This document shows, piece after piece, positions 14,514 to 31,985 of a DNA stretch of 32,000 bases. The stretch is from Pseudomonas aeruginosa (GTDB taxonomy: Bacteria; Pseudomonadota; Gammaproteobacteria; Pseudomonadales; Pseudomonadaceae): the NCBI RefSeq assembly GCF_001457615.1, contig NZ_LN831024.1:1290001-1322000 (forward strand), given 5' to 3'. The notes under the pieces were generated by a model. The model was not told where the DNA came from and searched no databases. It worked only from the letters and a program-made list of their open reading frames with translations. The position numbers and the translations under genes were made by a program. The first letter of the stretch is position 1. The number at the start of each line of letters is the position of its first letter.

Positions 14514-14565
14514 TCGAACGCCGGGCGCCGCTCGCGGGCCCGCGTCAACAGCGAAGGTTTTGAAC

Positions 14566-15975: not shown

Positions 15976-15992
15976 GCCTGTCGTGAAAGGAA

Positions 15993-16019
15993 GAAGCCCG
16001 CCTTGATGGCGGGCTTTTT
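15993..16019. terminator. Bidirectional terminator between thrC and the convergent hydrolase gene
   Basis: GAAGCCCGCC-TTGAT-GGCGGGCTTTTTC. A 9-bp GC-rich stem has a T-run on the + strand and an A-rich 5' flank that serves the minus strand. Confidence 0.75.
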
Positions 16020-16028
16020 CATGTCTTC

Positions 16029-17039: not shown

Positions 17040-17346
17040 GAGATCCTCGCTGTTCGATGCGCAGGGGGAAGTCTCGTTGTTACTGCCTGACGGACGCGCC
17101 GGATACTGCAATTTCAAGCAGGTGAAGGCGTTGCGCGAGGGTGGGATGGTTGGAGTTTTTCCCGGTGCTTCCCTTATAGCGGGCTGATCGTTGCGTTGGC
17201 CTGGTTCGGCTCGAATGGCTATTTGCGCCGGCACGTGGCCTTTCGCCAGATGCTGCCGTTAGTCCGGTAAATGCTTGCATCGACGAACCCTATTCGCGTT
17301 TTTTCGGTCTTTGACGAGTCTTATTCGTCGAAACAGGAGACCTGAT

Positions 17347-17631
17347 TTGGACAGCCTGAAGCAACGACTGGCCGATGCCTTCGCTCCCCATCCCTTCACC
17401 CTCAGCCAGCCCCGGCCCGATGGCGGACGGGTGGTCACGCTGGTCGATCCGCAGGGGGAAACCCTGTTGCAGCGGGTCATCGCCAAGGTGCAGTTGAACG
17501 ACGAAAGCTATCTCGAGGATGCCGTGCAGACCATTCGCCGGGAATTGCAGGTGCTGGTCGGGCGGATGGAGGAAGACGTGCTGGCGACCTTCCGCGAGCG
17601 GGATCACGTGCTGCTGTATTCGTCGCGCTAG
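17347..17631 (+). CDS. Hypothetical small protein (94 aa), TTG start
   Basis: AGGAGA (17335-17340) lies 6 nt upstream of TTG 17347. Third codon positions are G/C-rich throughout. I recognise no family. The track's ATG at 17275 lacks an SD and adds a Phe/Arg-rich leader. Confidence 0.5.
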   Translation: MDSLKQRLADAFAPHPFTLSQPRPDGGRVVTLVDPQGETLLQRVIAKVQLNDESYLEDAVQTIRRELQVLVGRMEEDVLATFRERDHVLLYSSR

Positions 17632-17741
17632 CACCGTCTCGTTCGAGGGCGCGTTGCGCATCGGGCGGTCAGGCCGAAGGCGCGCGCCGGTGCAGCGGCT
17701 CTTGCCGGATGGCGCCATGCTCGTGGAAGCGTGCGGATAAC

Positions 17742-17772
17742 CCCCTCTCCCTGGCTGGATAGGGGAGAGGGG
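17742..17772. repeat. GC-rich intergenic hairpin (REP-like or terminator-like) between convergent genes
   Basis: CCCCTCTCCC (17742-17751) and GGGAGAGGGG (17763-17772) form a 10-bp perfect inverted repeat with an 11-nt loop. There is no flanking T-run. Confidence 0.4.
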
Positions 17773-17815
17773 CCGCCCTGTCCGCGGAGCACCGATGAAG
17801 GGCTCCGCGTACCGT

Positions 17816-19015
17816 TCAGATGGCGCCTTCCCGGCGCAGGGCGGCGATGCCCTCGCTGTCGTAGCCCAGCTCGGCGAGCAGGGCATCGGTATGCTCGCCC
17901 AGTTCCGGGCCTACCCAATCCGCCGAGCCTGGCGTGGCGGACAGCTTGGGCACGATGCCAGGCATGCGGAATGGCTTGCCGTCCGGCAAGCGTGCCGAGA
18001 GGAACATCTCGCGGGCAAGGAATTGCGGATCGCGGAACATGTCTTCGGCGGAGTAGATTCGGCTGGCCGGGACTTCGGCTCGCGCCAGCACCGCCAGCAC
18101 TTCCTCCAGGGGCTGCGAGGCGACCCAGCGGTCGATAACCCCATAGAGTTCGTCGCGGCGCGCATCGCGCCCGTCGTTGCTGGCCAGTCGCGGGTCGCTG
18201 GCCAGGTCGTCGCGGCCGATGGCCTGCATGAAGCGGCGGAAGATCGCGTCGCCGTTGGCGCCGATCTGTACGTGGCGGCCATCGGCGCTGGTGTGGATGG
18301 AGGAGGGGGTGATGCCCGGCATGATGTTGCCGGTGCGCTCGCGGATGAAACCGAACACGTCGAATTCCGGAACCATGCTTTCCATCATGGCGAAGATCGC
18401 CTCGTAGAGGGCGACGTCGACCATCTGTCCCTCGCCGCCGTTGACCTCGCGGTGTCGCAGCGCCATCAGCGCGCCGATCACGCCCCACAGGGCGGCGATC
18501 GAGTCGCCGATGGAAATCCCGGTGCGAACCGGCGGGCGGTCCTCGAAGCCGGTAATGTAGCGCAGTCCGCCCATCGACTCGCCGACCGCGCCGAAGCCCG
18601 GCTGGTCCTTGTAGGGGCCGGTCTGGCCGAAGCCCGACAGGCGCACCATCACCAGGCGCGGGTTCAGCGCGTGGAGGACATCCCAGCCCAGGCCGAGCTT
18701 TTCCAGTACGCCGGGGCGGAAGTTCTCGATCAGGATGTCGGCATCGCCGAGCAGGCGTTTCAGGATCGCCTGGCCTTCGGCGTGCTTGAGATTGAGGGTC
18801 AGGGATTTCTTGTTGCGTGCCTGAACGAACCACCACAGCGAGGTGCCTTCGTAGAGCTTGCGCCACTTGCGCAGTGGATCGCCGCCGTCGGGCGACTCGA
18901 TCTTGATCACTTCGGCGCCGAACTCGGCGCAGATCCGCGAGGCGAAAGGGCCGGCGATCAGGGTGCCGAGCTCGACCACCTTCAGGCCGGCCAGCGGTTT
19001 GGGCGAATGTTCCAT
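17816..19015 (-). CDS. Family III CoA-transferase (CaiB/BaiF type)
   Basis: ...LAGLKVVELGTLIAGPFASRICAEFGAEVIKIE... is the typical N-terminus of the family, and the length is right. The start is either ATG 19015 (MEHSPKPL...) or ATG 19045. Neither has a strong SD. Confidence 0.9.
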   Translation of the reverse strand: MEHSPKPLAGLKVVELGTLIAGPFASRICAEFGAEVIKIESPDGGDPLRKWRKLYEGTSLWWFVQARNKKSLTLNLKHAEGQAILKRLLGDADILIENFRPGVLEKLGLGWDVLHALNPRLVMVRLSGFGQTGPYKDQPGFGAVGESMGGLRYITGFEDRPPVRTGISIGDSIAALWGVIGALMALRHREVNGGEGQMVDVALYEAIFAMMESMVPEFDVFGFIRERTGNIMPGITPSSIHTSADGRHVQIGANGDAIFRRFMQAIGRDDLASDPRLASNDGRDARRDELYGVIDRWVASQPLEEVLAVLARAEVPASRIYSAEDMFRDPQFLAREMFLSARLPDGKPFRMPGIVPKLSATPGSADWVGPELGEHTDALLAELGYDSEGIAALRREGAI

Positions 19016-19300
19016 GCGGTGTCCGTCAGGCTGCAGTGTGCGCATAGCCTAGAGCATTTGCCGGCGGTGCGGGCGGGTGCCGCGGTAGGGTGAGACGTTT
19101 CCCGTTTTTTCCCGATATGCCCGGCGGTCCTTCAATTCCTTTTGCATAGAGGGTTTAATGCGGGAGTCGATACAGGATGTAGCGCGCCAGACACCGAGCC
19201 AGGGAGGCCCCTCGTGCCATTTCTTTCTCTCTTTCCTCCCCGTGTTTCTTTTCCATGCTCCGGCCGGCCCGGCGTAGATATGCGCGTGCGTTGGTTTTTA

Positions 19301-19335
19301 TTACATGTGATCTGTTGAAATCTTACATGTGATCT
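19301..19335 (+). promoter_or_regulatory. Two perfect 13-bp direct repeats (operator-like) upstream of the cluster
   Basis: TTACATGTGATCT occurs at 19301-19313 and again at 19323-19335, with a 22-bp period. Each copy contains the palindromic core ACATGT. Confidence 0.5.
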
Positions 19336-19343
19336 CGTAGTGT
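19315..19343 (+). promoter_or_regulatory. Possible sigma70 promoter of the pspA-like/flotillin cluster
   Basis: TTGAAA (19315-19320), a 17-bp spacer, then TAGTGT (19338-19343). The predicted TSS would fall at about 19350, at the first ATG. Pattern match only, with a weak -10. Confidence 0.3.
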
Positions 19344-19349
19344 GAGTCC

Positions 19350-19970
19350 ATGCAACGGAAATCATCGGCCCATTATCAGCGTGTCTTTCGCCAGCGCCTG
19401 CGCGAGCAGGGCCTGGTGAAGAAGGAAGTCTGGATCTTGCCGGAGAACGCCGCGGCGCTCGCCGGCATCGAGCGGATGCTGCGTCGCCCGGCTGCCGGAG
19501 CGGCTCATTTGGAGAAGGAGGAAGACATGACGGAAGCCCGGGTATGGAACGCTCGCTCGCTGGCCGAGGCCCTGAGCGGCACCGAGCTGTTCAGCAGCGG
19601 CGAGGCCCAGATCGAGCTGATCGAGGGGGCGGAAGCGAGTCTCTACGTGATCATGCGCGAATACGGCGACCTGCCGGTGTTCGTCGCGCCCCAGGGCGAG
19701 CAGATCATCGTCGAGGCGCTGCTCTGGCCGGAAAGCGACGTTACCGACGCGACCGCCTTCAACGAAGAGGTCCTGCTCAGCCGGCAACTGTTCCCGCTGT
19801 CGAGCATCGGCCTGCTCAACCTGCCGGGCGAGGAGCGCTGCTACAGCATGTTCGGCGCGTTGAGCACGACTTCGTCGCTGGCCAGCGTGCTGCACGAAAT
19901 CGAAACCCTGGCCGGCAACGTGATCCGCGCCACGGAAGTCTACGCCGGCTACCTGAAAGCCCGGGCCTGA
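19350..19970 (+). CDS. DUF2170/YjfI-like protein with an about 59-aa basic N-terminal extension (alternative start 19527)
   Basis: Residues 60-206 (MTEARVWNARSLAEAL...YSMFGALS...LHEIETLAGNVI...) resemble the YjfI/DUF2170 proteins encoded next to yjfJ. A near-perfect SD (AAGGAGG, 6 nt) precedes the internal ATG at 19527. Even so, 19350-19526 stays open in-frame with G/C-rich third positions. Confidence 0.75.
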   Translation: MQRKSSAHYQRVFRQRLREQGLVKKEVWILPENAAALAGIERMLRRPAAGAAHLEKEEDMTEARVWNARSLAEALSGTELFSSGEAQIELIEGAEASLYVIMREYGDLPVFVAPQGEQIIVEALLWPESDVTDATAFNEEVLLSRQLFPLSSIGLLNLPGEERCYSMFGALSTTSSLASVLHEIETLAGNVIRATEVYAGYLKARA

Positions 19971-19984
19971 GGGAGGACACCATC

Positions 19985-20680
19985 ATGACGGTATGGAGCA
20001 AGCTGCTGAGCGCCCTGCGCGGCGGAGCCAACGAGGTTGGCGAGGCGATCGTCGACAGCCAGGCGCTGCGCATCCTCGACCAGGAGATCCGCGACGCCGA
20101 CGTCGAACTGCGCAAGTCGCGGGAAGCGCTGGCCTCGATCATGGCCCGCCACCGCCTGGCCCAGGAGCGCGTCGAGAAGGGCGCGGCCCAGGTCGCCGAG
20201 TACGAGCAATACGCGATCAAGGCACTGGAGGCCGGCAACGAGGAGCTGGCCCGGGAGGTCGCGGAGAAGATCGCGACCCTGGAGAACCAGCTCGAGGGCG
20301 AGCGTGCCCAGGTCGCGGAATTCGCCGCCAGCGTAGCCCAGTTGCGCAAGTCGGTGAGCCAGGCCGAGGGCAACATCCGCCAGCTCAAGCAACAGGTGGA
20401 TACGGTCAAGGCCACCGAGAGCGTGCAGAAGGCGCAGATGGCCGTTGCCCAGCGCTACGGCAACTCGAAGAGCAAGCTGCAGACCGCGGTGGACTCCCTG
20501 GAGCGGATCAAGCAGCGCCAGGCCGAACGCGCGGCGACCATGGATGCCGCGGCCGAACTGGCCAGCGCGGCGGCGCCGGACGATGCGCTGGACGCCAAGC
20601 TGCGCGCGGCTGGGATCAAGGCCTCGGGCAACAGCGTGGATGGCGTGCTGGCGCGCCTGAAGGAAAAGGGCAAGGCCTGA
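19985..20680 (+). CDS. PspA/IM30 family protein, YjfJ type
   Basis: 231 aa, all-helical. RILDQEIRDADVELRKSREAL..., VAEKIATLENQL, VDTVKATESVQKAQMAV and SLERIKQRQAERAATMDAAAEL match my recollection of E. coli YjfJ and the PspA heptad pattern. GGGAGGA lies 7 nt upstream of the ATG. The track ORF 19544-20680 shares this frame but starts too early. Confidence 0.92.
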   Translation: MTVWSKLLSALRGGANEVGEAIVDSQALRILDQEIRDADVELRKSREALASIMARHRLAQERVEKGAAQVAEYEQYAIKALEAGNEELAREVAEKIATLENQLEGERAQVAEFAASVAQLRKSVSQAEGNIRQLKQQVDTVKATESVQKAQMAVAQRYGNSKSKLQTAVDSLERIKQRQAERAATMDAAAELASAAAPDDALDAKLRAAGIKASGNSVDGVLARLKEKGKA

Positions 20681-20689
20681 TAGGCCCGC

Positions 20690-20719
20690 GGCCCGGCGAA
20701 GGCGTCCGGGCCCGTTTTT
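20690..20719 (+). terminator. Terminator/attenuator-like hairpin after the pspA-like gene
   Basis: GGCCCGG-CGAAGGCGT-CCGGGCC followed by CGTTTTTC, inside the 55-bp spacer before the next gene. Confidence 0.45.
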
Positions 20720-20735
20720 CAGGGATAGAGCGACA

Positions 20736-21377
20736 ATGGAAGGTTTCCTGCAGACGGCGCTGTCGTTCCCGACCGTGCTGTTCAGCTTTCTTCTGATCTT
20801 AGCGATCATCTACTGGGGCATCGTCGCCCTGGGCATGGTCGAGATCGATGTGCTCGATCTCGACGCCGAGTCGGTCGTCGATGGCGCCGGCCAGGCCGAA
20901 GGCCTCGCCGCGCTGCTGGCGAAGCTGAAACTCAACGGCGTACCGGTCACCCTGGTGCTGACCCTGCTGTCCTTCTTCGCCTGGTTCCTCTGCTACTTCG
21001 TCCAGCTGTGGCTGCTCAGCGCATTGCCGCTCGGCTGGCTGCGCTACCCGTTGGGCGCCGTGGTGGCGGTGGGCGCGCTGTTCCTGGCGGCGCCGCTGGC
21101 GGCCACGCTGTGCCGGCCGTTGCGGCCGCTGTTCCGCAAGCTGGAAAGCACCAGCAGCAAGTCGGTGCTGGGCCAGGTCGCGGTGGTGCGCAGCGGGCGG
21201 GTCACCCTGCAACATGGCGAGGCGTTGCTGGAAGACGGCGGCGCCGGGCTGATCCTGAAAGTTCGTGCGGAAGAAAACAAAGGCTTCAAGCGCGGCGATC
21301 GCGTCGTGCTGCTGGAGTACCTGGAGGCGGAGCACGCCTATCGGGTCGTTACCGAGGAAGAGTTCCGCGGTATCTGA
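20736..21377 (+). CDS. YqiJ/DUF1449-like inner membrane protein with a C-terminal NfeD-like OB-fold domain
   Basis: It has 3-4 N-terminal TM helices. The C-terminus is soluble and beta-rich: VLGQVAVVRSGRVTLQHGEALLEDGGAGLILKVRAEENKGFKRGDRVVLLEY. It lies immediately upstream of a flotillin gene, the classic NfeD-SPFH pairing. Confidence 0.8.
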   Translation: MEGFLQTALSFPTVLFSFLLILAIIYWGIVALGMVEIDVLDLDAESVVDGAGQAEGLAALLAKLKLNGVPVTLVLTLLSFFAWFLCYFVQLWLLSALPLGWLRYPLGAVVAVGALFLAAPLAATLCRPLRPLFRKLESTSSKSVLGQVAVVRSGRVTLQHGEALLEDGGAGLILKVRAEENKGFKRGDRVVLLEYLEAEHAYRVVTEEEFRGI

Positions 21378-21412
21378 CCCGGGCTCGGTGAGAATCAAGG
21401 AGAACTGCTGCT

Positions 21413-23479
21413 ATGGATATGACGTCGCTGATGCCCCTCCTGCTGGGAGTGGGCCTGGTTGTTCTGCTGGTCGTGGGCCTGCTGGCCCTGTTCAAGGCCT
21501 TCTACATCAAGGTCCCGCAAGGCACCGCGCTGATCGTCAACGACATGTCGTCGACGCCCAAGGTGCATTTCACCGGTGCGCTGGTCTATCCGGTGATCCA
21601 CCTGAAGGAGTTCATGCGCATCTCGCTGATCACCCTGGAGGTCGACCGGCGCGGCAAGGACGGCCTGATCTGCCGCGACAACATGCGCGCGGACATCACC
21701 GTTGCCTTCTACCTGCGGGTCAACGAGACCCAGGACGACGTGCTCAAGGTGGCCAAGGCCATCGGCGTCGACCGTGCTTCCGACCGTTCGGCGGTGAACG
21801 AGCTGTTCAATGCCAAGTTCTCCGAGGCGCTGAAGACCGTCGGCAAGCAGTTCGACTTCGTCCAGCTGTTCGAGAATCGCCAGGACTTCCGTGACCGCAT
21901 CATCGAGGTGATCGGCAACGACCTGAACGGCTACGTCCTGGAAGACGTCGCCATCGACTACCTGGAGCAGACCGCGAAGAACTCGCTGGACCCGAGCAAC
22001 ATCCTTGATGCCGAGGGCATCCGCAAGATCACCGAGCTGACCGCCACCCAGAACGTCATCACCAACGAACTGGAGCGCAACGAAGAGCTGGCGATCAAGA
22101 AGAAGAACGTCGAGACCCGCGAGGCGGCCCTGGCCCTGGAGCGCCAGCAGGCTGACGCCGAGGCCCGGCAGAAGCGCGAGATCGAGACCATCCGTGCCCG
22201 CGAGGAAGCGGAAACCGCGCGGGTCAAGGAAGAGGAGCGGCTGAAGGCCGAGCAGGCGCGGATCCAGGCGCAGCAGGAAATCGACGTGCGCACCGAGAAC
22301 CACCAGCGCGAGGTCGAGGTGGCGCAGCAGAACCGCCAGCGCGCGGTGGTCATCGAGGTGGAGAAGGTCACCCGCGCCAAGGACCTGGAGATCGTCGCCC
22401 GCGAGCGTGAGGTGGAGCTGCAGAAGATCGAGAAGGAAAAGGCGCTGGAAGAGCAGCGCAAGAACATTGCCAATGTGATTCGCGAGCGCGTCGCGGTGGA
22501 AAAGACCGTGGCCCAGGAGGAGGAGCGGATCAAGGAGGTGCGCGAGGTTTCCGAGGCCGAGCGGGTCAAGCAGGTGATACTGCTGCAGGCCCAGGCGGAA
22601 GCCGAGCAGGAGCTGGTACGCCAGGTCAAGCAGGCGGAAGCCGACGAGGCCCGCTCCAAGCACAAGGCGGTGGAAATCAACACCATGGCGCAGGCCGAGC
22701 TGGAGGCGGCGTCGAAGCAGGCCGAGGCGAAGAAGCGTCTGGCCGAGGGCATCGAGGCCGAGCGCGCAGCGCCGGGCCTGGCCGATGCGCGGGTGCTGGA
22801 AGTCACCGCCGCGGCGAAGGAAAAGGATGGCTTGGCAGCGGCGCGGGTACGTGCCGAACAACTGATCGCCGAAGCCAGGGGCGACGAAGAGCGCGGCCTG
22901 GCCGACGCCCGGGTGCTCGAGGCGCAGGCCGCGGCCAAGGAGAAGGACGGCCTGGCCGAAGCCAAGGTGCTGGCCGAGAAGCTCGGCGCCCAGGCGCGCG
23001 GCGAAGAGCAGCTCGGCGCGGCCAAGGCCAAGGCCACCAAGGACCAGGGCAGCGCGGAAGCGGAAGTACTGCTGCAGCGCCTGAATGCCGAGGCCGAGGG
23101 GCTTGGCAAGAAGTTCGGCGCCCTGGATGCCCTCAGCGACAGCGCTCGCCAGCACGAAGAGTTCCGCATGCAGCTGGAGAAGAGCTTCGAGGAGGCCATG
23201 GCGGCCATCGCCGCGAACAAGGACATCGCCAAGGACCAGGCCGAGGTGCTCGCCACCGCGCTGGGCAAGGCGAACATCGAGATCGTCGGCGGCGAGGGCG
23301 ACTTCTTCAACTCCTTCGCCAAGTCGCTGTCGGTGGGCAAGGCCATCGAAGGTGTGGTCGGCAAGAGCCCGGTGGTGCAGGACGTTCTCGCCCGCCTGCT
23401 CAACGGCCGTGGCGCAGCCGCTGCGGTGATGCCGGAACGCAAGAGCGGCCACGAGAACGAGCCGGCGGCGGAAGTCTGA
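21413..23479 (+). CDS. Flotillin-like SPFH/band-7 protein (YqiK-like), 688 aa
   Basis: N-terminal TM anchor (LMPLLLGVGLVVLLVVGLLALF) and an SPFH core (...ALIVNDMSS..VHFTGALVYPVIHLKEFMRISLITLEV...DNMRADITVAFYLRV). A long Glu/Ala/Lys/Arg-rich coiled-coil 'flotillin' region follows. AAGGAG lies upstream. Confidence 0.92.
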   Translation: MDMTSLMPLLLGVGLVVLLVVGLLALFKAFYIKVPQGTALIVNDMSSTPKVHFTGALVYPVIHLKEFMRISLITLEVDRRGKDGLICRDNMRADITVAFYLRVNETQDDVLKVAKAIGVDRASDRSAVNELFNAKFSEALKTVGKQFDFVQLFENRQDFRDRIIEVIGNDLNGYVLEDVAIDYLEQTAKNSLDPSNILDAEGIRKITELTATQNVITNELERNEELAIKKKNVETREAALALERQQADAEARQKREIETIRAREEAETARVKEEERLKAEQARIQAQQEIDVRTENHQREVEVAQQNRQRAVVIEVEKVTRAKDLEIVAREREVELQKIEKEKALEEQRKNIANVIRERVAVEKTVAQEEERIKEVREVSEAERVKQVILLQAQAEAEQELVRQVKQAEADEARSKHKAVEINTMAQAELEAASKQAEAKKRLAEGIEAERAAPGLADARVLEVTAAAKEKDGLAAARVRAEQLIAEARGDEERGLADARVLEAQAAAKEKDGLAEAKVLAEKLGAQARGEEQLGAAKAKATKDQGSAEAEVLLQRLNAEAEGLGKKFGALDALSDSARQHEEFRMQLEKSFEEAMAAIAANKDIAKDQAEVLATALGKANIEIVGGEGDFFNSFAKSLSVGKAIEGVVGKSPVVQDVLARLLNGRGAAAAVMPERKSGHENEPAAEV
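22775..23014 (+). repeat. In-frame 120-bp tandem duplication inside the flotillin coiled coil
   Basis: Copy 1 is 22775-22894 (GLADARVLEVTAAAKEKDGLAAARVRAEQLIAEARGDEER). Copy 2 is 22895-23014 (GLADARVLEAQAAAKEKDGLAEAKVLAEKLGAQARGEEQL). By manual alignment, 29 of 40 residues are identical. Confidence 0.85.
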
Positions 23480-23628
23480 GTCGACCCGCAGCCTCCTCCG
23501 CCAACTGCGGAGGCGTTCCGCCCGCGCCCTGAGCGGCGCAGCCCCTGGCGTGGCCTGTTGGCTGCGCCCGGGGCAGGCCGCTCGGGCCGGTTTCCATCGA
23601 TGACCGCCGTAGACCCAGGAAGACCAGG

Positions 23629-26600
23629 ATGTCGGACACTCAAGCCGCAACTCCCGCGCAGGACGTATTGGACAAGGCCGTTGCCGAGGGCGGCGCCTAC
23701 GAGGTGCTGCACAAGCGCCTGCTGGAGCAGGGCCAGCGCCTGCGGCAGACCGCCGAAAGGCTCAACGCCAGTCGCCTGGAGGAGTTCGGCGACAGCCAGA
23801 TGGATGTGATCGGCCGGGTCCGCATCCGTACCGAGAACAACTGCATCGCCCGCGATATCGTCCAGGTCGGCGATTGCCTGCTGTTCGGCTACAACGTGTT
23901 CATCGGCCTGCGCAAGGAAACCGGCGTGGCCGACGTGTTCTCCCTCTACCGCCTGGTGGAGGGCAGCGAAGGCTACGAGGCGGAGCCTGTGCCACTGGGG
24001 GACAGCTTTCTCGCCGCGCCGGGCTTCGTCAACGACTTCAACGAGCTTTACACCTACTACAAGAACACCCGCCTGCTGCAACTGGCGATCCGCGACGGCA
24101 AGCTGCTGGCCAGCTTCCAGATCGGCGAGCGGATCACCGACATCCGCGTGTTCCGCTGGTCGATCTCCAGCGACGGTAGCGAAGTCCGCTACATCGACAA
24201 CCGCGGCGAGCGCGACATCGCCTTGCCGGCACCGTTCGACTTCGAATGGCAGCGGGCTACCCGCGAGATGGTGGTGGAGGGCCGCTTCCCGCACCTGAAC
24301 ATCCTCGACACCCTGTTCGTCGAGACCATTGGCGGCGACCTGACCATCAAGGTCGAGAACAACACCGAGGTCGGCCTGGGCATCTATCGCGAAGAGGTGA
24401 TGGACAAGACCCAGTCGCTGGACGACGCGCAGGTTGAGTTCGCCCGCCTCGGCAGCCTGCTGCTGCTCAAGGTCCTGCCCTATCGCGAGGAGCAGTGGCG
24501 CTACCTGGTGTTCAACAGCCTGACCGGCAAGGTCGAGCGCATCGACGCCATCGGCCTGGCCTGCATCCAGTTGCCGGAGGACCACGGGATCATCTTCCCC
24601 GGCGGCTACTACCTGCAGAACGGCGAGTACCGCACCTTCGAGCAATCCATGGAAGGCATGCGCTTCAAGCGCTCGGTACGCTCGCCCAACGGCGAGGACG
24701 TGCAGTACGTTTTCTACCATCCCGAGCAGGGGCGGAACGTGCTGCTCACCTACAACCTGATCAACCGCCAGTTGCAGAATCCGCTGTTCGGCCACGGCTA
24801 CGCGCGCCTGGAGGACGGGCGCATGGTGATCTTCGCCGCCGAAGGCGAGGAACCGACCCGCATCCATCCGATGCAGGTCTGGCAGACGCCGTTCTGCACC
24901 GAGGAGTACGCGGCCCGCCAACCGGCGCGTAGCGGTTTTCTCGGGCGGATCGGCAATGCCGAGCTGGTGCGCGGCGTCTCCGACCTCTACGACTTGTGCC
25001 GGGAGATCGAGACCCCGGCGGTTTCGATCCAGCGCTACTCGCTGCTGTGCCAGAACACCCAGCGCCTGTTCGACGTCTACCACTGGCTCGGCAGCGACCA
25101 ACTGGACGGCTTGGCGCCGCTGTTGCGCGAAGTGGCGGCGACCGCCGAGCTGGTGCTCGACGAGTACGAGAAGGTCGAAAGTATCCGCCGCCAGTCGGCC
25201 CAGGCGATGGTCGACGCGGAGGAGCGGCACAAGGCGCTCCTCTCCGGCTTGCTGCCCGACGGCTGGGACCGGGTGCAGCAGTTCGTCGACGGGCTCAACG
25301 GCATCACCGCCCAGCGTGGGTTGCTGCTGACCATCCGCGAGTACCGCTACATCGACGTGGCGCGACTCGACGCCATGGAGGCCGAACTGCTCGCGGCCCA
25401 CGAGCGGGTGGCCGCCGCCACCGCGACCTTCCTCGCCAGCGAACAGGCCCTGCAGCCCTTGCTGGAGCGCCTGCAGAGCCTCGATGGCGAGGCGCAGAAA
25501 GCCGAGACCGTGGCCCAGCTCGGCGAGCCGCTGGCGGCCCTGGAGGCGATGGCCGGCGACCTCGACATGCTGTCCTCGCTGATGGCTTCGCTGCGCATCG
25601 ACGACGCGACCCAGCGGACCCGCATCATCGAGTCGATCTCGGAGATCTACGCCCGCCTGAACCAGGCCAAGGCGCGCGCCGAGCAGCGGCGCAAGGGACT
25701 CGGTTCGAGCGAGACCGTGGCCCAGTTCGGCGCCCAGTTCAAACTGTTCGGCCAGGGCATCACCAACGCCCTGGCCCAGGCCCAGGACCCCGAGCGCTGC
25801 GACGAGCAACTGTCGCGCCTGCTGGTGCAACTGGAGGAACTGGAAAGCCAGTTCGGCGACCATGAGCAGTTCCTCGGCGACATCCTGGCCAAGCGCGAGG
25901 AGCTGCTGGAAACCTTCGAAGCGCACAAGCAGACCCTGCTCGACGAGCGCCAGCGCAAGGCCCAGGGACTGCTCGACGCCGCCCGGCGAATTCTCGACAG
26001 CCTGCAACGACGCACCGCGCGCTTCACCCAGGCGGAGGAACTGAACGCGTTCTTCGCCGCCGACCCGCTGATCCTCAAGTTGCGCGAACTGGCCGAACGT
26101 CTTCGCGAATTGAAGGACAGCGTCAAGGCCGACGACGTCGAGGCGCGCCTGAAGGCCGCGCGCGACCAGGCGGTCCGCGCATTGCGCGACAAGAGCGAGC
26201 TGTTCGAGGAGGGCGGCGACGTCATCCGCCTGGGCCCGCGCCACCGCTTCAGCGTCAACACCCAGGAACTCGACCTGACCCTGATGCCGCGCGGCGACGC
26301 GCTGTACCTGCACCTGACCGGCACCGATTTCCTCGAACCGCTGCAGGACCCGCGGCTCGATGAGTTGCGCGAGTTCTGGCAGGTGAACCTGGAATCCGAA
26401 TCGGAGACGCTGTACCGCGCCGAATATCTCGCCGGCGAAGTGCTCGCCGCCGCCGACGCGGGCCGCGATGGCTTCAGCCTGGAGCGCTTGCAGGCGCTGC
26501 TGGCGCAGCCGGACGAGCTGGCGCGGGCGATCCGCGATTTCGCCGCACCGCGCTACAAGGAGGGCTACGAGAAAGGCATTCACGACCACGATGCGGCGGC

Positions 26601-28869
26601 GATCCTGGTTCGCCTGCTGCCGTTGCGCGAGAGCGCCGGACTGCTACGCTACGCACCCTCGGCGCGGGCCTTCGCCAGCCTGTTCTGGAGCCGCCGGCGC
26701 GAGGAGCGGGAAGTCGCCGGCTGGCCCGAGCGGGCACGCAGCAGCCGCAGCATCCAGCAGATGTTCGGTCGTGACGACGGCCTGCTCGCCCTTCGCGGCG
26801 AAGTGGCCGCGGCGATGCGTGCGCTGCTCGCCGGACAGCCCATCGCGCTGGACCCGCAGCATATCGACGAGGCGGCCGAGTACCTGGTCTGGGAATTGTC
26901 CGCCGAGCGTCCCGAATTCACCTTCAGCAAATATGCCCGGCAATTGCAGGAAGGACTCAAGCTGCGCCTGCAAGGCGCGCGTCTATGGGACGACTACCGG
27001 CAGACCCTGGAGCGTCTCGGCGAGCGGCCCGCCGCCCAGTGGGAACTGGCCGGCAACTGGCTGCGCGGACTATGTGGCGACGCCGAGTTCCAGCCGCTGG
27101 CGGCCTACCTGGACGAGGCGGTGGCGCTCTCGTTGCTGGACGAGGAGATGCCACGACGGATCACCGAGGTCGACCTGCGCTTCCAGGTCGACGGCCTGAT
27201 GGGCGAGCATCCGCGCATCGTCGAACGCGGCCTGGCGCTGGCGGTGGACGACTTCTTCGGCCGCCTGCGTCGCCATCGCCAGCAGTTCCTGCCGGGGCTG
27301 CGGCGCTACCAGGCGCTGCGCCAGGAGATCGTCGAACGCGAGCGCGAGGCATTGCGCCTGGCCGAGTTCAAGCCGCGACCGCTGTCCTCGTTCGTTCGCA
27401 ACAAGCTGATCAATGACGTCTACCTGGGTGTCATCGGCGACAACCTGGCCAAGCAGATGGGGACGGTGGGCGAGAACAAGCGCACCGACCTGATGGGCCT
27501 GCTGATGCTGATCTCCCCGCCAGGCTACGGCAAGACCACCCTGATGGAGTACGTGGCGCATCGCCTGGGGCTGATCTTCATGAAGATCAACGGTCCTGCC
27601 CTCGGCCACGAGGTGCGCTCGCTCGACCCCGGGCAGGCGCCGGACGCGACTTCGCGGCAGGAACTGGAGAAGCTCAACCTGGCGCTGGAGATGGGCAACA
27701 ACGTGATGCTCTATGTCGACGACATCCAGCACACCCATCCGGAGTTCCTGCAGAAGTTCATCTCCCTCTGCGACGGCACGCGCCGGGTGGAAGGGGTGTG
27801 GAAGGGCTGGACCAAGACCTACGACATGCGTGGGCGGAAGTTCTGCGTGGTGATGGCGGGCAACCCCTACACCGAGTCCGGCGAGGTCTTCCGCATTCCC
27901 GACATGCTCGCCAACCGCGCCGACATCTACAACCTCGGCGACACCCTCAGCGGCATGCAGGAGGCGTTCTCCCTCAGCTACATCGAGAACGCCCTGACCT
28001 CCAACCCGGTTCTCGCGCCGCTGGCCACCCGCGACATGGCCGACGTCTATCGCTTCGTCGCCAAGGCCGAGGGCAAGCCGTTCTCCAGCAACGAGCTGGC
28101 CCACGGCTACAGCGGTGCCGAGATCAACGAGATCAGCAGCACCCTGCAACGCCTCATGCAGGTGCGCGACGTGGTGCTCAAGGTCAACCAGCAGTACATC
28201 GCCAGCGCCGCCCAGGCCGACCAGTACCGCAGCGAGCCGCCGTTCAAGCTGCAGGGCAGCTACCGCAACATGAACAAGATGGCGGAGAAGATCTCCGCGG
28301 TGATGAACGATGCCGAGCTGCTGCAACTGATCGCCGACCACTACCAGGGCGAGTCGCAACTGCTGACCACCGGAGCCGAGGAGAACCTGCTGAAGCTCGC
28401 CGAACTGCGCGGCAACCAGAGCCCCGAGCAGGCCGAGCGCTGGGCGCAGATCAAGCGTGACTTCCTGCGCAACAAGTCCATGGGCGGCAGCGACGCCGAC
28501 GTCGGCGGACGGCTGGTTGCGCAGCTCAACGACCTTGTGGAAAGCGTCCGTGGCCTGGCTCGCGAACCCCAGCCGGTACAACCGGCGCCCTGGGACGAGT
28601 TGTTGGCTGGATTGCGCCAGCTCGGCCAGGGTGCGCCGGCGCTGAACGTCGAGGTGACGGCGCCTGCGCAGCCGGGCGTGCAGCAGGTGCTGGAGAGCCT
28701 TGCCGCCTGCCTGCAGGACAGTTTCCTGCCGCTGATCAAGGTGATGGACCGCAAGATCGACGTCGACCTGCGCACGCACAACCGCATCAACGAGATATCC
28801 AGCCGCCTCGACGAACTGGGCCGGTTGCTGGGCGGCGAGCAGAGGCCGCTGGAGAACGATCAACCCTGA
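23629..28869 (+). CDS. Giant (1746 aa) uncharacterised protein: beta-rich N-terminal region, about 800-aa helical region, single MoxR/AAA_5-like AAA+ ATPase module, helical C-terminus
   Basis: Uninterrupted 5.2-kb ORF with AGGAAG upstream. Walker A is SPPGYGKTT (27514-27540) and Walker B is VMLYVDDIQ (27703-27729). It continues ...FCVVMAGNPYTESGEVFRIPDMLANRADIY, the AAA_5/MoxR-style 'NP...G...lp.Al.dR' pattern. The rest matches no family I recognise. Confidence 0.9.
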   Translation: MSDTQAATPAQDVLDKAVAEGGAYEVLHKRLLEQGQRLRQTAERLNASRLEEFGDSQMDVIGRVRIRTENNCIARDIVQVGDCLLFGYNVFIGLRKETGVADVFSLYRLVEGSEGYEAEPVPLGDSFLAAPGFVNDFNELYTYYKNTRLLQLAIRDGKLLASFQIGERITDIRVFRWSISSDGSEVRYIDNRGERDIALPAPFDFEWQRATREMVVEGRFPHLNILDTLFVETIGGDLTIKVENNTEVGLGIYREEVMDKTQSLDDAQVEFARLGSLLLLKVLPYREEQWRYLVFNSLTGKVERIDAIGLACIQLPEDHGIIFPGGYYLQNGEYRTFEQSMEGMRFKRSVRSPNGEDVQYVFYHPEQGRNVLLTYNLINRQLQNPLFGHGYARLEDGRMVIFAAEGEEPTRIHPMQVWQTPFCTEEYAARQPARSGFLGRIGNAELVRGVSDLYDLCREIETPAVSIQRYSLLCQNTQRLFDVYHWLGSDQLDGLAPLLREVAATAELVLDEYEKVESIRRQSAQAMVDAEERHKALLSGLLPDGWDRVQQFVDGLNGITAQRGLLLTIREYRYIDVARLDAMEAELLAAHERVAAATATFLASEQALQPLLERLQSLDGEAQKAETVAQLGEPLAALEAMAGDLDMLSSLMASLRIDDATQRTRIIESISEIYARLNQAKARAEQRRKGLGSSETVAQFGAQFKLFGQGITNALAQAQDPERCDEQLSRLLVQLEELESQFGDHEQFLGDILAKREELLETFEAHKQTLLDERQRKAQGLLDAARRILDSLQRRTARFTQAEELNAFFAADPLILKLRELAERLRELKDSVKADDVEARLKAARDQAVRALRDKSELFEEGGDVIRLGPRHRFSVNTQELDLTLMPRGDALYLHLTGTDFLEPLQDPRLDELREFWQVNLESESETLYRAEYLAGEVLAAADAGRDGFSLERLQALLAQPDELARAIRDFAAPRYKEGYEKGIHDHDAAAILVRLLPLRESAGLLRYAPSARAFASLFWSRRREEREVAGWPERARSSRSIQQMFGRDDGLLALRGEVAAAMRALLAGQPIALDPQHIDEAAEYLVWELSAERPEFTFSKYARQLQEGLKLRLQGARLWDDYRQTLERLGERPAAQWELAGNWLRGLCGDAEFQPLAAYLDEAVALSLLDEEMPRRITEVDLRFQVDGLMGEHPRIVERGLALAVDDFFGRLRRHRQQFLPGLRRYQALRQEIVEREREALRLAEFKPRPLSSFVRNKLINDVYLGVIGDNLAKQMGTVGENKRTDLMGLLMLISPPGYGKTTLMEYVAHRLGLIFMKINGPALGHEVRSLDPGQAPDATSRQELEKLNLALEMGNNVMLYVDDIQHTHPEFLQKFISLCDGTRRVEGVWKGWTKTYDMRGRKFCVVMAGNPYTESGEVFRIPDMLANRADIYNLGDTLSGMQEAFSLSYIENALTSNPVLAPLATRDMADVYRFVAKAEGKPFSSNELAHGYSGAEINEISSTLQRLMQVRDVVLKVNQQYIASAAQADQYRSEPPFKLQGSYRNMNKMAEKISAVMNDAELLQLIADHYQGESQLLTTGAEENLLKLAELRGNQSPEQAERWAQIKRDFLRNKSMGGSDADVGGRLVAQLNDLVESVRGLAREPQPVQPAPWDELLAGLRQLGQGAPALNVEVTAPAQPGVQQVLESLAACLQDSFLPLIKVMDRKIDVDLRTHNRINEISSRLDELGRLLGGEQRPLENDQP

Positions 28870-28887
28870 GGACACGAGGAGCGGGAA

Positions 28888-29580
28888 ATGGACTTCGACG
28901 GATTGGACCGCCAGCTGCGCGACAGCCTGGCCGATCTGAAGCTGAGCAACGAGGAGCGGGACGAACTGCGCCAACTGGGCAGCGAGCTGGCACCCGACCA
29001 GGTGCGTTTCCTGCGCAACCGTGCCTTCGACCTGGTGCGTGAGCTGGTCCTCCTGGAGGAGCAGGGCGAACGGATAGCCGCCCTGAAGTGGCTGGAGCAG
29101 GTGGTGCGCACCCTGGAGGTTACCGCGGCGCCGCCGCGCAGCCGCGCCAGCGCCTATTTCAGTCCCGGCGAGGAGTGTCGGCGGAAGATCCGCGAACTGT
29201 GCCGGCAGGCCAGGCAGAGCCTGGACATCTGCGTGTTCACCATCTCCGACGACCAGCTCAGTGCGGAAATCCTGGCCTGCCATCGGCGCGGCGTTCCGGT
29301 GCGGATCATCAGCGACGATGACAAGCAGTTCGACGAAGGCAGCGACATCCATGCGCTGCGCGAGGCCGGCGTGCCGCTGCGAATCGACGACAGTCCCTTC
29401 CACATGCACCACAAGTTCGCCCTGGTGGATGGCGCCTGGCTGCTCAACGGCAGTTTCAACTGGACCCGCAGCGCCAGCGTCAACAACGAAGAGAACCTGC
29501 TGGTAACCGACGACGCCGTGCTGATCGGCGCCTATCGGCGCGAGTTCGAGGAACTCTGGGGCCGCTACGCCCCGCGCTGA
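28888..29580 (+). CDS. Single-HKD phospholipase D superfamily protein (Nuc/Zucchini-like) with an about 85-aa helical N-terminal extension
   Basis: HKD motif H-H-K-F-A-L-V-D followed by GAWLLNGSFNWTRSASVNNEEN (29407-29490). The start lies 18 bp after the giant ORF's stop, with GAGGAG upstream. Confidence 0.9.
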   Translation: MDFDGLDRQLRDSLADLKLSNEERDELRQLGSELAPDQVRFLRNRAFDLVRELVLLEEQGERIAALKWLEQVVRTLEVTAAPPRSRASAYFSPGEECRRKIRELCRQARQSLDICVFTISDDQLSAEILACHRRGVPVRIISDDDKQFDEGSDIHALREAGVPLRIDDSPFHMHHKFALVDGAWLLNGSFNWTRSASVNNEENLLVTDDAVLIGAYRREFEELWGRYAPR

Positions 29581-29686
29581 GCGGCAGCGACGCGAGAAAG
29601 GCAGGGCAGGCGGTCGGCCGGCGGACCGCACGCGGGCGGGTTTCAGGTTAGACTTGCGCCCTTTCGCTTCCCACGCCGGTATTCCC

Positions 29687-30226
29687 ATGGCCCTGCAATC
29701 CACGCCCTATAAAGCCGATATTTCCCTCACCGACCTGGACCGCGGGGTCTACGAGACGTTGCGCCTGACCGTGGCCCGGCACCCCTCCGAGACCGAGGAG
29801 CGCCTGGCCGTGCGCTTGCTGGCCTACGTGCTGTGGTACGGCGAGCAGATCGCCTTCGGGCGTGGCCTGTCGGACGTGGACGAACCGGCGCTCTGGGAAA
29901 AGAGCCTGGACGGCCGGGTCCTGCACTGGATCGAAGTCGGCCAGCCGGACGCCGAGCGCATCACCTGGTGCTCGCGTCGCTGCGAGCGCTTCAGCCTGCT
30001 CGCCTATGGCAACCTGCGGGTCTGGCAGACCAAGGTGCTGGACAGCGTGCGCAGCCTGAAGAACATCAACGTCGCGGCAGTGCCCCAGGAACCCCTGGAG
30101 AGCCTGTCCCGCGACCTGCCGCGTTCGATCAACTGGACCGTGATGATCAGCGAGGGCACCCTGTTCGTCACCGACGAGAACGGCCAGCACGAGTTGCAGC
30201 TGGAGTGGCTGCAGGGCGAGCGTTGA
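29687..30226 (+). CDS. yaeQ: YaeQ family protein (PD-(D/E)XK-like fold)
   Basis: MALQSTPYKADISLTDLDRGVYETLRLTVARHPSETEERLAVRLLAY... is collinear, by eye, with my recollection of E. coli YaeQ (MALKATIYKA...ARHPSETQERMM.RLLA). Length is 179 aa. The start is an internal ATG of the track ORF 29654-30226. Confidence 0.9.
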   Translation: MALQSTPYKADISLTDLDRGVYETLRLTVARHPSETEERLAVRLLAYVLWYGEQIAFGRGLSDVDEPALWEKSLDGRVLHWIEVGQPDAERITWCSRRCERFSLLAYGNLRVWQTKVLDSVRSLKNINVAAVPQEPLESLSRDLPRSINWTVMISEGTLFVTDENGQHELQLEWLQGER

Positions 30227-30269: not shown

Positions 30270-31985
30270 ATGCGTATCGAACCCCGCCCCCTGCCCGAAA
30301 CCCTGCCCGATCTCGGCGACCTTCCGCCATTGCTGGCGCGCCTGTACGCGGCTCGTGGCGTGCGTTGCGCCGAGGAGCTGGACAAGGGCCTGGCGCGGCT
30401 GATTCCCTACCAGCGGCTGAAAGGCATCGAAGAGGGCGTGGCGCTGCTGGTGGACGCCCTGGAGGGCGGCCAGCGGATTCTCATCGTCGGCGACTTCGAC
30501 GCCGACGGCGCCACCGCCAGCAGCGTCGGCGTGCTGGCCCTGCGCATGCTCGGCGCGGCCTGGGTCGATTACCTGGTGCCGAACCGCTTCGAGTACGGCT
30601 ACGGCCTGACCCCGGAGATCGTCGGCGTGGCCCTGGAGAAGCGTCCCGACCTGCTGGTGACGGTGGACAACGGCATCTCCAGCGTGGACGGCGTCCAGGC
30701 GGCGAAAGCCGCGGGGCTCAAGGTGCTGGTCACCGACCACCACCTGCCTGGCCCGGAACTGCCGGCGGCGGATGCGATCATCAACCCCAACCAGCCGGGC
30801 TGCGAATTCCCCAGCAAGGCCATGGCCGGGGTCGGGGTGATCTTCTATGTGATGCTGGCGTTGCGGGCGCGCCTGCGCGAGCTGGACTGGTTCGCCCGGC
30901 GCGGGCTGAAGGAACCGAACCTCGCCGAGCTGCTCGACCTGGTGGCGCTGGGCAGCGTCGCCGATGTGGTGCCGCTCGATGCCAACAACCGCATCCTGGT
31001 CCACCAGGGCCTCGCGCGCATCCGCGCCGGCCGCGCCCGGCCGGGCTTGCGCGCGCTGCTGGAGGTGGCCGGGCGGCCTCCGGTACGGATCACCTCCACC
31101 GACCTGGGTTTCATCCTCGGTCCGCGCCTGAACGCGGCGGGTCGGCTCGACGACATGTCCCTCGGCATCGAATGCCTGCTCTGCGACGACGAAGCGCTGG
31201 CCCGCGACATGGCGGTGCAGCTCGACCAGTTGAACCAGGACCGCAAGGCCATCGAGCAGGGTATGCAGCGCGAGGCGCTGGCGCAGCTCAAGGAGCTGAG
31301 CCTGGAGCAACTGCCGTTCGGCTTGTGCCTGTTCGACGCCGACTGGCACCAGGGCGTGATCGGAATCCTCGCCTCGCGCCTGAAGGAGCGTTACCACCGG
31401 CCGACCATCGCCTTCGCCGATGCCGGCGACGGCAGCCTGAAAGGCTCGGCACGGTCGATTCCCGGCTTCCACATCCGCGACGCGCTGGACGCGGTAGCCG
31501 CCCGTCATCCCGGGCTGATCAGCAAGTTCGGCGGCCACGCGATGGCTGCCGGACTATCGTTGCCGCAGGAAAACTTCGGCGCTTTCTCCGCCGCCTTCGA
31601 TGCCGAAGTACGCCGCCAACTGGCCGAGGAGGACCTGGCCGGGCGCCTGCTCTCCGATGGCCAGTTGAGCATCCAGGAGTTCCACCTGGAGTTGGCGCGC
31701 GCGTTGCGCCAGGCCGGTCCCTGGGGCCAGCACTTTCCCGAGCCGATGTTCCACGGGGTGTTCCAGCTGGTGCAGCAGCGGATCGTCGGCGAGCGTCACC
31801 TGAAGCTGGTGCTGAAAAGCGAATGCGGCTCGCTGCAACTGGATGGCATTGCCTTCAACATCGACCGCGAGCAGTGGCCCAACCCTACCGTGCGCTGGGC
31901 CGAGCTGGCCTACAAGCTCGACGTCAACGAATTCCGCGGCCAGGAAAGCGTGCAACTGATGATCGTCCACATGGCTCCTCGCTGA
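30270..31985 (+). CDS. recJ: Single-stranded-DNA-specific 5'-3' exonuclease RecJ
   Basis: 571 aa. DHH-family motifs (ILIVGDFDADGATA, VTVDNGIS, LVTDHHLP), the DHHA1 motif (GGHAMAAG) and a C-terminal OB-like domain. Confidence 0.96.
   Translation: MRIEPRPLPETLPDLGDLPPLLARLYAARGVRCAEELDKGLARLIPYQRLKGIEEGVALLVDALEGGQRILIVGDFDADGATASSVGVLALRMLGAAWVDYLVPNRFEYGYGLTPEIVGVALEKRPDLLVTVDNGISSVDGVQAAKAAGLKVLVTDHHLPGPELPAADAIINPNQPGCEFPSKAMAGVGVIFYVMLALRARLRELDWFARRGLKEPNLAELLDLVALGSVADVVPLDANNRILVHQGLARIRAGRARPGLRALLEVAGRPPVRITSTDLGFILGPRLNAAGRLDDMSLGIECLLCDDEALARDMAVQLDQLNQDRKAIEQGMQREALAQLKELSLEQLPFGLCLFDADWHQGVIGILASRLKERYHRPTIAFADAGDGSLKGSARSIPGFHIRDALDAVAARHPGLISKFGGHAMAAGLSLPQENFGAFSAAFDAEVRRQLAEEDLAGRLLSDGQLSIQEFHLELARALRQAGPWGQHFPEPMFHGVFQLVQQRIVGERHLKLVLKSECGSLQLDGIAFNIDREQWPNPTVRWAELAYKLDVNEFRGQESVQLMIVHMAPR

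Follow-up and report, generated by a model that had tools for sequence, protein, structure and literature searches.

Within a 32,000-nucleotide stretch of the Pseudomonas aeruginosa genome (NZ_LN831024.1, positions 1,290,001 to 1,322,000; hereafter, the window), we studied BacE, a giant AAA+ protein of 1746 amino acids encoded in the bacABCDEF operon. Our analysis suggests that BacE is the ATPase subunit of a three-gene membrane module, composed of the NfeD-like protein BacC, the flotillin BacD (PaFlo3) and BacE itself, and that it serves as an ATP-driven remodeler or regulator of the flotillin scaffold. We assign this reading a probability of roughly one half. BacE is taken as a flotillin partner because its gene is linked to a flotillin gene both in close relatives and in remote phyla, and because its other neighbors are variable and partly membrane-linked. 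It is taken as a motor because it combines an AAA+ fold with a conserved Walker A motif and with sensor-1 and arginine candidates, and because the AAA+ module is the part of the protein most conserved across phyla.

As a catalogued family member, with a Pfam record, a published name and a printed architecture, BacE is not a discovery in itself. New in this work are the quantified linkage to a flotillin/NfeD core, the domain-level models, an invariant DD pair in the Walker B motif, and a middle domain for which the PDB holds no significant match. Giant AAA+ proteins coupled to a flotillin are, as a kind of system, not known to have been characterized before. One whose gene adjoins that of a single flotillin subfamily in several phyla provides an experimental handle on what bacterial flotillins do and on how SPFH scaffolds are assembled and taken apart.

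The bacE gene and its published record

The gene was located as follows:

23629..28869, forward strand: bacE (PA3728 / PA14_16190), 1746 amino acids, identified by its open reading frame, its translation and its near-identity to the P. aeruginosa protein cluster P0001.

The open reading frame (ORF) starts with ATG and runs without interruption for 1746 codons' worth of residues, in agreement with the initial annotation of this stretch, which had described an uninterrupted 5.2-kb ORF for a 1746-residue protein. The G+C content at third codon positions is 0.90, compared with 0.86–0.91 in the neighboring genes, in a window with an overall G+C content of 66%. More than 5900 homologs were found; these formed 1413 clusters at 50% identity, 485 of them at E ≤ 1e-30. 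Because the ORF is uninterrupted, its third-position G+C resembles that of its neighbors and it has thousands of homologs, bacE is a real gene and not a chance ORF. Two ORFs of 1543 and 877 codons run antisense across bacD, bacE and bacF (21958-26589 and 27070-29703, reverse strand), and their translations are of low complexity and rich in Ala, Arg and Leu. Since the third-position G+C of bacE matches that of its neighbors, they were rejected as genes and look like ordinary shadow ORFs of high-GC DNA.

Its identity to cluster P0001, which has 3222 member sequences, rounds to 100%. The sole difference from the cluster representative is at residue 1394 (window ~27808-27810), which is Trp here (VWKGWTKTY) and Arg in both the representative and the family consensus (VWKGRTKTY); it sits in the hairpin before sensor 1, at a position that varies across phyla. 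Judged by this near-identity, the window corresponds to PA3732-PA3725, and the protein, published as BacE, to PA3728 / PA14_16190.

The architecture of BacE and its operon class were given in a computational account by Ravi, Anantharaman, Aravind and Gennaro (mSystems 2024; PMC11237479). The class comprises CesT/Tir-PspA, band-7/flotillin, AAA+ (coiled coil and beta-propeller), YqiJ/YuaF and phospholipase D (PLD) genes, and abbreviated flotillin and YqiJ/YuaF operons, with or without the AAA+ gene, were reported as widespread. Using reverse transcription PCR, Wallart et al. 2024 (PMC10948618) found PA14_16140-16200 to be a single operon, bacABCDEF, and named PA14_16190 BacE and PA14_16200 BacF. 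In PMC13086221, PA14_16180 is PaFlo3 and BacC is a short NfeD (PA14_16160); in PMC11237479, BacC is of the YqiJ/YuaF type. The six bac genes of the window (19350-29580, forward strand) have the strand and order of the published bacABCDEF / CesT-PspA-flotillin-AAA+ class; all six components are present, and there is no difference in identity. Both PMC11237479 and PMC10948618 cast BacE as a PspA partner and give it no function, structure or quantified linkage, whereas in our comparison its conserved partners are flotillin and NfeD.

Flotillin and NfeD-like genes are the conserved neighbors of bacE

Gene neighborhoods were compared in 80 bacE loci, one genome per species, at 47–80% identity. The loci come from Gamma-, Beta-, Zeta- and Deltaproteobacteria/Myxococcota, plus two odd fragments, and neighbors were counted by phmmer searches with the window proteins. 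A flotillin gene lies upstream of the bacE homolog in 74 of the 80 loci. In the other six the contig begins inside bacE, so that flotillin is present in all informative loci (74/74). It is directly adjacent in 71 of these and 2-3.3 kb upstream in three (L041, L054 and L080). An NfeD-like gene was found in 69/80 loci. The counts for the remaining operon members are 38/80 for PspA, 37/80 for BacA and 18/80 for PLD. Other genes follow the bacE homolog in loci that have no PLD gene: a TelA-family gene in about 15 Xanthomonadales-type loci (PF05816, E=2e-70, e.g. L047:13539-14645), and a rhomboid protease gene in about 11 Enterobacterales-type (Xenorhabdus/Providencia-type) loci (PF01694, E=3.7e-19, e.g. 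L013:12675-13241). Rhomboids are intramembrane proteases.

Full-length, colinear family members of 1600-1930 amino acids reach down to 27% identity, and remote members with the same Pfam architecture occur in Bacteroidota, Verrucomicrobiota, Planctomycetota, Sumerlaeia and Vibrio. Seven remote loci, from the first four of these groups, were compared as well. Flotillin is encoded upstream in six of them (E 1e-128 to 1e-152), immediately next to the bacE homolog in five and, in Dysgonomonas, with two small genes in between, and an NfeD-like gene is present in 5/7. Because the linkage to flotillin and NfeD is near-constant in close and remote loci and the other neighbors are variable, the conserved unit is an NfeD-like protein, a flotillin and BacE. 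PspA/BacA, PLD, TelA and rhomboid are interchangeable, lineage-specific add-ons. The initial annotation had named PspA and flotillin as equal partners; both genes are there, but only flotillin is conserved, together with the NfeD-like gene, and PspA is optional.

Two apparent gene fusions were set aside. In a metagenome protein of 1798 amino acids (P0127), flotillin residues 192-654 are fused to BacE from residue 225. This single case looks like an in-frame deletion or an assembly artefact and was not used; a genuine fusion would be a hint that flotillin and BacE lie close together. A second protein (P0202) begins with a long-NfeD-like protease domain, continues with an apparently frame-shifted stretch, and was not used either.

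The neighbor counts bear directly on a Vps4-like role, in which BacE would disassemble or recycle polymers of PspA (BacB), a member of the ESCRT-III superfamily, after membrane repair. PspA-AAA+ pairings have been treated as ESCRT-like (PMC11237479), PspA is encoded in the same Pseudomonas operon, and BacB-F are co-regulated. The parallel with Vps4 and ESCRT-III is an AAA+ protein whose gene accompanies that of an ESCRT-III-superfamily polymer and which plausibly acts in recycling an assembly on the membrane. PspA, however, is missing from about half of the bacE loci, against flotillin in every locus that reaches far enough, and the flotillin linkage persists where PspA is absent. A Verrucomicrobiota locus (L083, 1151-3750) has a PspA gene with its own 559-residue classical AAA partner, divergent from the adjoining NfeD-flotillin-bacE trio. 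BacE also differs from Vps4 in clade, as described below, and is about four times its size. Taken together, these observations make a PspA-recycling role quite unlikely.

Domain anatomy of BacE

Structures were modeled with AlphaFold2 (AF2) in two parts, and the domains were assigned as follows:

23740..25083, forward strand: residues 38-485, Pfam DUF3686, comprising helix 23-53 at the N-terminus and a beta-propeller of seven blades (59-423); from PF12458, AF2 and Foldseek.
24937..26199, forward strand: residues 437-857, an all-helical, spectrin-like rod of ~13 helices; from AF2 secondary structure, PF25472 and weak spectrin-repeat matches.
25444-25695, forward strand: residues 606-689, DUF7902 (PF25472, E=7e-29), inside the rod.
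26266..27348, forward strand: residues ~880-1240, a globular middle domain, alpha-rich with small beta elements; from AF2.
27481..28068, forward strand: residues ~1285-1480, the AAA+ ATPase core; from Pfam, Foldseek and invariant motifs.
28069..28866, forward strand: residues 1481-1746, the helical lid together with the C-terminal region, which closes with a long helix (1682-1733); from AF2.

BacE has the full set of domains that defines the DUF3686/DUF7902 family: PF12458 over residues 38-485 (E=1.7e-205, 448/448 profile positions), PF25472, and then a C-terminal AAA match (E=2e-5). The same three precomputed domains appear in nearly all of the 240 homologs listed. Both DUF3686 and DUF7902 are Pfam domains of unknown function. 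No solved structure was found among BacE relatives; PDB searches with the protein and with a 72-sequence profile returned only the ~40 P-loop residues of RuvB and p97.

The model of residues 1-900, built on a 72-sequence alignment, has a mean predicted local distance difference test (pLDDT) score of 79.8. In it, helix 23-53 precedes ~28 strands that are arranged as seven four-stranded blades (residues 59-423), and Foldseek matched this N-terminal model to 7-bladed propellers (prolyl oligopeptidase, the LRRK2 WD40 domain and FBXW8) with E-values of 1e-6 to 1e-4. The top Foldseek matches for residues 1-900 are the clathrin heavy chain, IFT-A subunits and nucleoporins, membrane-coat-type proteins that, like BacE, have a propeller at the N-terminus and then a long helical stretch. 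The match is one of domain order only (template-modeling score ~0.1, root-mean-square deviation ~30 A) and implies no homology; the helical part of BacE looks more like a spectrin-type rod than a solenoid.

The model of residues 861-1746 has a mean pLDDT of 74.8, which exceeds 90 across the ~360 residues of the middle domain. No match to the middle domain was found in Pfam, in the PDB by sequence search or by a profile of 72 family sequences, or by Foldseek, where the top 50 hits for the C-terminal model in the PDB and BFVD were all weak AAA+ matches. The modeled domain has no recognizable relative. It may represent a new fold, linking the motor with the scaffold. At the C-terminus, the last ~65 residues are missing in Bacteroidota members, as seen in protein lengths and regional identities.

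The initial annotation had proposed, from the letters alone, a propeller-like region at residues 60-440, a helical region at 440-1270 and a single C-terminal AAA+ module. The models and Pfam bear out this layout and place the seven blades almost exactly where the beta-rich region was seen. The helical region is correct for the rod only; residues ~880-1240 are modeled as a globular domain of their own, in which helices predominate and beta elements are small. In the Foldseek comparison of models that it recommended, the propeller and the AAA+ module had matches and the middle domain had none among the top hits, and Pfam placed the protein in a catalogued family. The statement that about 1500 residues were unassigned does not hold, as DUF3686 and DUF7902 cover parts of them, and the view that the architecture matched no characterized protein was overstated, given the Pfam family, the NCBI name, the architecture in PMC11237479 and the name BacE in PMC10948618.

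The AAA+ module lies outside the classical clade

BacE has the features of the AAA+ superfamily, namely a Walker A motif of the form GxxGxGK[ST] and an alpha/beta fold with a helical lid. Walker A is SPPGYGKTT, with K1302; Walker B is MLYVDD, with D1364-D1365; the sensor-1 candidate is N1412 within MAGNPY; and the arginine-finger candidate is R1430 within IPDMLANRADIY. These motifs, all of which had been quoted correctly in the initial annotation, show no variation among 72 close relatives and 20 sequences from across the phyla. Across the family Walker B reads (V/L/I)DDIQH, and its DD pair is invariant in the same sequences. Between Pseudomonas and Bacteroidota, Planctomycetota or Verrucomicrobiota, the AAA+ module retains 58-73% identity, as against 22-46% for the propeller, rod and middle domain.

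Profile matches to the module are marginal. Pfam AAA, AAA_22 and AAA_5 match residues 1290-1415 at threshold level (E 2e-5 to 1e-4). AAA_5 covers positions 2-125 of 139, scoring 22.6 bits where the cut-off is 22 (E=1.1e-4), and is only 'weak' or 'faint' in many homologs; PF00004 (AAA) covers only the first half of the module (positions 2-72 of 131). By structure, Foldseek gave the AAA+ core probabilities of 0.99-1.0 to RuvB, CbbQ and NorQ and 0.92 to ClpB, with E-values of just 2e-3 to 3e-2. When normalized to the target, template-modeling scores were best for CbbQ and NorQ (0.33-0.37, versus 0.27 for RuvB). In the AF2 model a hairpin (strands 1386-1391 and 1394-1399, pLDDT ~54-68) lies before sensor 1, between helix 1371-1381 and strand 1405-1409. 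A segment of ~18 residues (1322-1339) at the beta2-alpha2 position, where a helix-2 insert would lie, is modeled as coil at low to moderate confidence.

Because of the modeled pre-sensor-1 hairpin and the Foldseek pattern, we place the module in the hairpin-bearing AAA+ clades and not in the classical Vps4/FtsH clade. In line with this, Pfam gave no MIT or Vps4_C match in BacE and no full-length PF00004 match. An assignment to the MoxR type is plausible. Like RavA, CbbQ and NorQ (AAA_5), BacE has the motif pattern NP...E.G...P(D/E)..L.R, the predicted hairpin and its best normalized scores to CbbQ and NorQ. Unlike them, it has DD instead of DE in Walker B, a threshold-level profile score, and a module at the C-terminus of 1746 residues. 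An adjacent gene for a VWA/MIDAS partner, a further criterion for the MoxR clade, was not found among the conserved or accessory neighbors in related or remote loci. The initial annotation, in which MoxR/AAA_5 rather than Vps4/FtsH affinity was taken as established, was therefore right about the non-classical clade, with AAA_5 spanning the module, and went too far on MoxR membership, since scores are marginal and RuvB and ClpB do equally well.

The invariant DD pair also bears on whether BacE is a motor at all. BacE could instead be a nucleotide switch or scaffold that rarely hydrolyzes ATP, and that senses or organizes, recruiting PspA, PLD, TelA and others to flotillin domains upon membrane damage. 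The DD pair resembles the DDIQ motif of DnaA, a slow, regulated ATPase, a likeness we use as a lead only. The very large non-catalytic docking regions and the accessory partners that differ by lineage are consistent with such a role too. Yet sensor 1, the arginine candidate and the rest of the catalytic set are extremely conserved, which suggests real turnover, and Pfam detects no signaling output domain. We regard a pure switch as doubtful.

Database names point to DNA repair

Pfam and NCBI carry the name 'ATPase involved in DNA repair' for this family, and the NCBI name on cluster P0001 is 'DNA repair ATPase'. If these names were right, BacE would be an ATPase of DNA repair or other nucleic-acid work, or would belong to an anti-phage defense, acting with a PLD nuclease near recJ. 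The PLD protein does resemble Nuc, NucT, DrmC and DpdK, the operon is induced by phage infection, and there is a weak similarity to the RuvB P-loop. But recJ adjoins the locus in only 8 of the 80 loci, all of the Pseudomonas group, the PLD gene is confined to 18, and the conserved partners are all membrane proteins. The RuvB match amounts to ~40 residues around the P-loop. Moreover, BacE has a single C-terminal AAA+ P-loop, rather than the split ABC-type heads that flank the coiled coil in SMC/Rad50. A scan of PADLOC-DB 2.0 produced no defense-system assignment: BacA-D had no match, BacE matched LmuB weakly and over the coiled coil only (residues 608-876, E=4e-4), and the PLD protein gave generic matches to DrmC, Mko and DpdK. 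In a literature search, no paper was found that mentions DUF3686 or gives BacE a function. Based on the gene context and this absence from the literature, we rejected the DNA-repair reading as highly improbable. The name 'DNA repair ATPase' is thus carried by thousands of proteins, and no evidence supporting it was found here. BacE is not a demonstrated member of MoxR, Vps4, SMC or any PADLOC defense family.

BacE as a proposed ATP-driven partner of the flotillin scaffold

Based on these results, we propose the following mechanism. On the cytoplasmic side of the inner membrane, the flotillin and the NfeD-like protein would form an SPFH-type scaffold. BacE would oligomerize via its AAA+ module and dock on this scaffold via the beta-propeller, the helical rod or the middle domain, since a propeller and a long rod are typical protein-interaction modules. 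ATP turnover by BacE, expected to be slow and regulated because the Walker B DD pair is invariant, would then power the building, dismantling or reshaping of this scaffold or its contents. Our data and the published expression work show the domain anatomy, the conservation, the gene linkage, the co-transcription and the co-regulation, from which oligomerization, contact with flotillin, the direction of remodeling and the actual substrate are inferred. The general idea of the initial annotation, a remodeling motor or switch acting with membrane scaffold proteins, remains the best reading.

In Pseudomonas, the module is joined to the BacA-PspA pair and a MitoPLD-like hydrolase, giving a stress-induced bacABCDEF operon that answers membrane damage. 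Expression data in favor of the proposal are the co-transcription of the operon, the joint rise of BacB-F in a bacA mutant (6- to 13-fold; PMC10948618) and the joint induction of PA3728-PA3732 by phage infection (PMC12041424). In another published proteome PA3728-PA3732 also rise together, and published data show that PA3731 is induced by membrane-damaging S. aureus toxins. In its most far-reaching version, our proposal would make BacE the first remodeler dedicated to a flotillin (SPFH) scaffold that is ATP-driven and protease-free, conserved from Proteobacteria to Planctomycetota and Bacteroidota. In Pseudomonas it would then be part of a single inducible machine for membrane repair or remodeling, wired together with the ESCRT-III-like PspA and a lipid hydrolase of the MitoPLD kind. 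We put this version forward as tentative.

Known systems offer a parallel and an alternative. In HflK/C-FtsH and in prohibitin with the m-AAA protease, an SPFH-family scaffold is likewise genetically coupled to an inner-membrane AAA+ ATPase (PMC13220708 and PMC13376388). By analogy, BacE might be a client-directed unfoldase or extractor that acts on membrane proteins gathered in flotillin microdomains, as a protease-free counterpart of FtsH inside HflK/C. The flotillin linkage fits this idea as well as it fits scaffold remodeling, and the rhomboid gene after bacE in Enterobacterales-type loci would suit it. BacE differs from those ATPases, however, in having no protease domain, no transmembrane (TM) anchor, a non-classical AAA+ clade and a flotillin-type SPFH partner, to which it is coupled by gene linkage. 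With DD in Walker B, no clear pore-loop aromatic and no known client, the unfoldase alternative appears unlikely.

Several observations weigh against BacE as a remodeler of the flotillin scaffold. The linkage is at the level of genes, and linkage is no proof of physical interaction. Among the seven remote loci, that of Aureibacter is the sole one with an orphan bacE homolog, with no flotillin nearby. The canonical Walker B, hhhhDE with a catalytic Glu, is not found in BacE, where DD replaces the usual Glu, and inspection by eye revealed no obvious aromatic pore-loop motif; processive threading by BacE is doubtful on these two grounds. The AAA+ core is modeled with moderate confidence (pLDDT 44-84). 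In P. aeruginosa, deletion of paFlo3 reduced biofilm by ~20% with no strong phenotype, SPFH deletion mutants in general had almost no phenotype (PMC13086221), and a pa3728 transposon mutant grew normally in published data. The mild paFlo3 phenotype and the normal growth of the pa3728 mutant thus give no clear pointer to the physiological role of the NfeD-flotillin-BacE module.

Other features of the bac operon

The genes around bacE in the window are:

19350..19970, forward strand: bacA, DUF2170/YjfI-type with an N-terminal extension of ~60 amino acids (NCBIfam BacA E=6e-102, DUF2170 E=7e-50).
19985..20680, forward strand: bacB, PspA/IM30 (YjfJ-type), 231 amino acids (PF04012 E=3.5e-66).
20736..21377, forward strand: bacC, short NfeD / YqiJ-type membrane protein, 213 amino acids (from linkage and literature names).
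21413..23479, forward strand: bacD / PaFlo3, flotillin-like, with TM segment, SPFH (Band 7) domain and coiled coil, 688 amino acids (Band_7 E=2.5e-7 over residues 33-182; weak FloT match).
28888..29580, forward strand: bacF, single-HKD PLD-family protein, 230 amino acids (PLDc_2 E=6.7e-30).
30270-31985, forward strand: recJ, encoding RecJ, after a 690-bp gap behind bacF.

The bacC product had no Pfam match. At full length, neither did BacD, even at E=10; its first 250 residues alone match Band_7 at 2.5e-7. The long coiled coil of BacD, rich in Glu, Ala, Lys and Arg, probably triggers the bias filter, and BacD homologs are likewise blank in the precomputed Pfam tables. This flotillin subfamily is therefore easily overlooked by automated annotation.

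By sequence, the nearest solved relative of BacF is MitoPLD/Zucchini, a cardiolipin hydrolase of eukaryotic mitochondria (E=7.6e-32 and 1.3e-29); matches to the bacterial proteins Nuc (2.8e-11) and NucT (4.6e-6) are far weaker. BacF has an N-terminal helical extension of ~90 amino acids, and no signal peptide was noticed by eye. Its substrate may be cardiolipin or nucleic acid, the two candidates once weighed for Zucchini as well.

The PspA gene at 19985-20680 begins at an internal ATG of the ORF 19544-20680, behind a GGAGG site. A competing ORF at 19993-20796 (forward strand, 267 amino acids, rich in Arg, Gly and Pro) was rejected as the PspA gene because it is in the wrong frame.

In the Verrucomicrobiota locus that has a separate PspA-AAA pair (L083), genes for RtcR, a Ro60/TROVE-vWA protein, RtcB and RtcA lie downstream (14444-21151). 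An SPFH gene is also embedded in the rtc locus of P. aeruginosa (PMC13086221).

Upstream of bacA, a sigma-54 consensus pattern search did not find the site proposed in PMC10948618, and a simple sigma-70 scan gave nothing. The sequence TTACATGTGATCT occurs twice there (19301-19313 and 19323-19335), 22 bp apart and 15-50 bp before the bacA start codon, and its core is the near palindrome TCACATGTGA; the paired sites are not mentioned in PMC10948618. Paired copies of the TTACATGTGATCT type also precede bacA in Pseudomonas, Lysobacter and Oleiphilaceae loci (L001-L009, L011, L015, L025 and L063). The basic N-terminal extension of BacA, ~60 residues outside the DUF2170 core, has no Pfam match. Given the paired sites, this basic extension and the de-repression of BacB-F in the bacA mutant, BacA may be an autorepressor that binds the paired TTACATGTGATCT sites.

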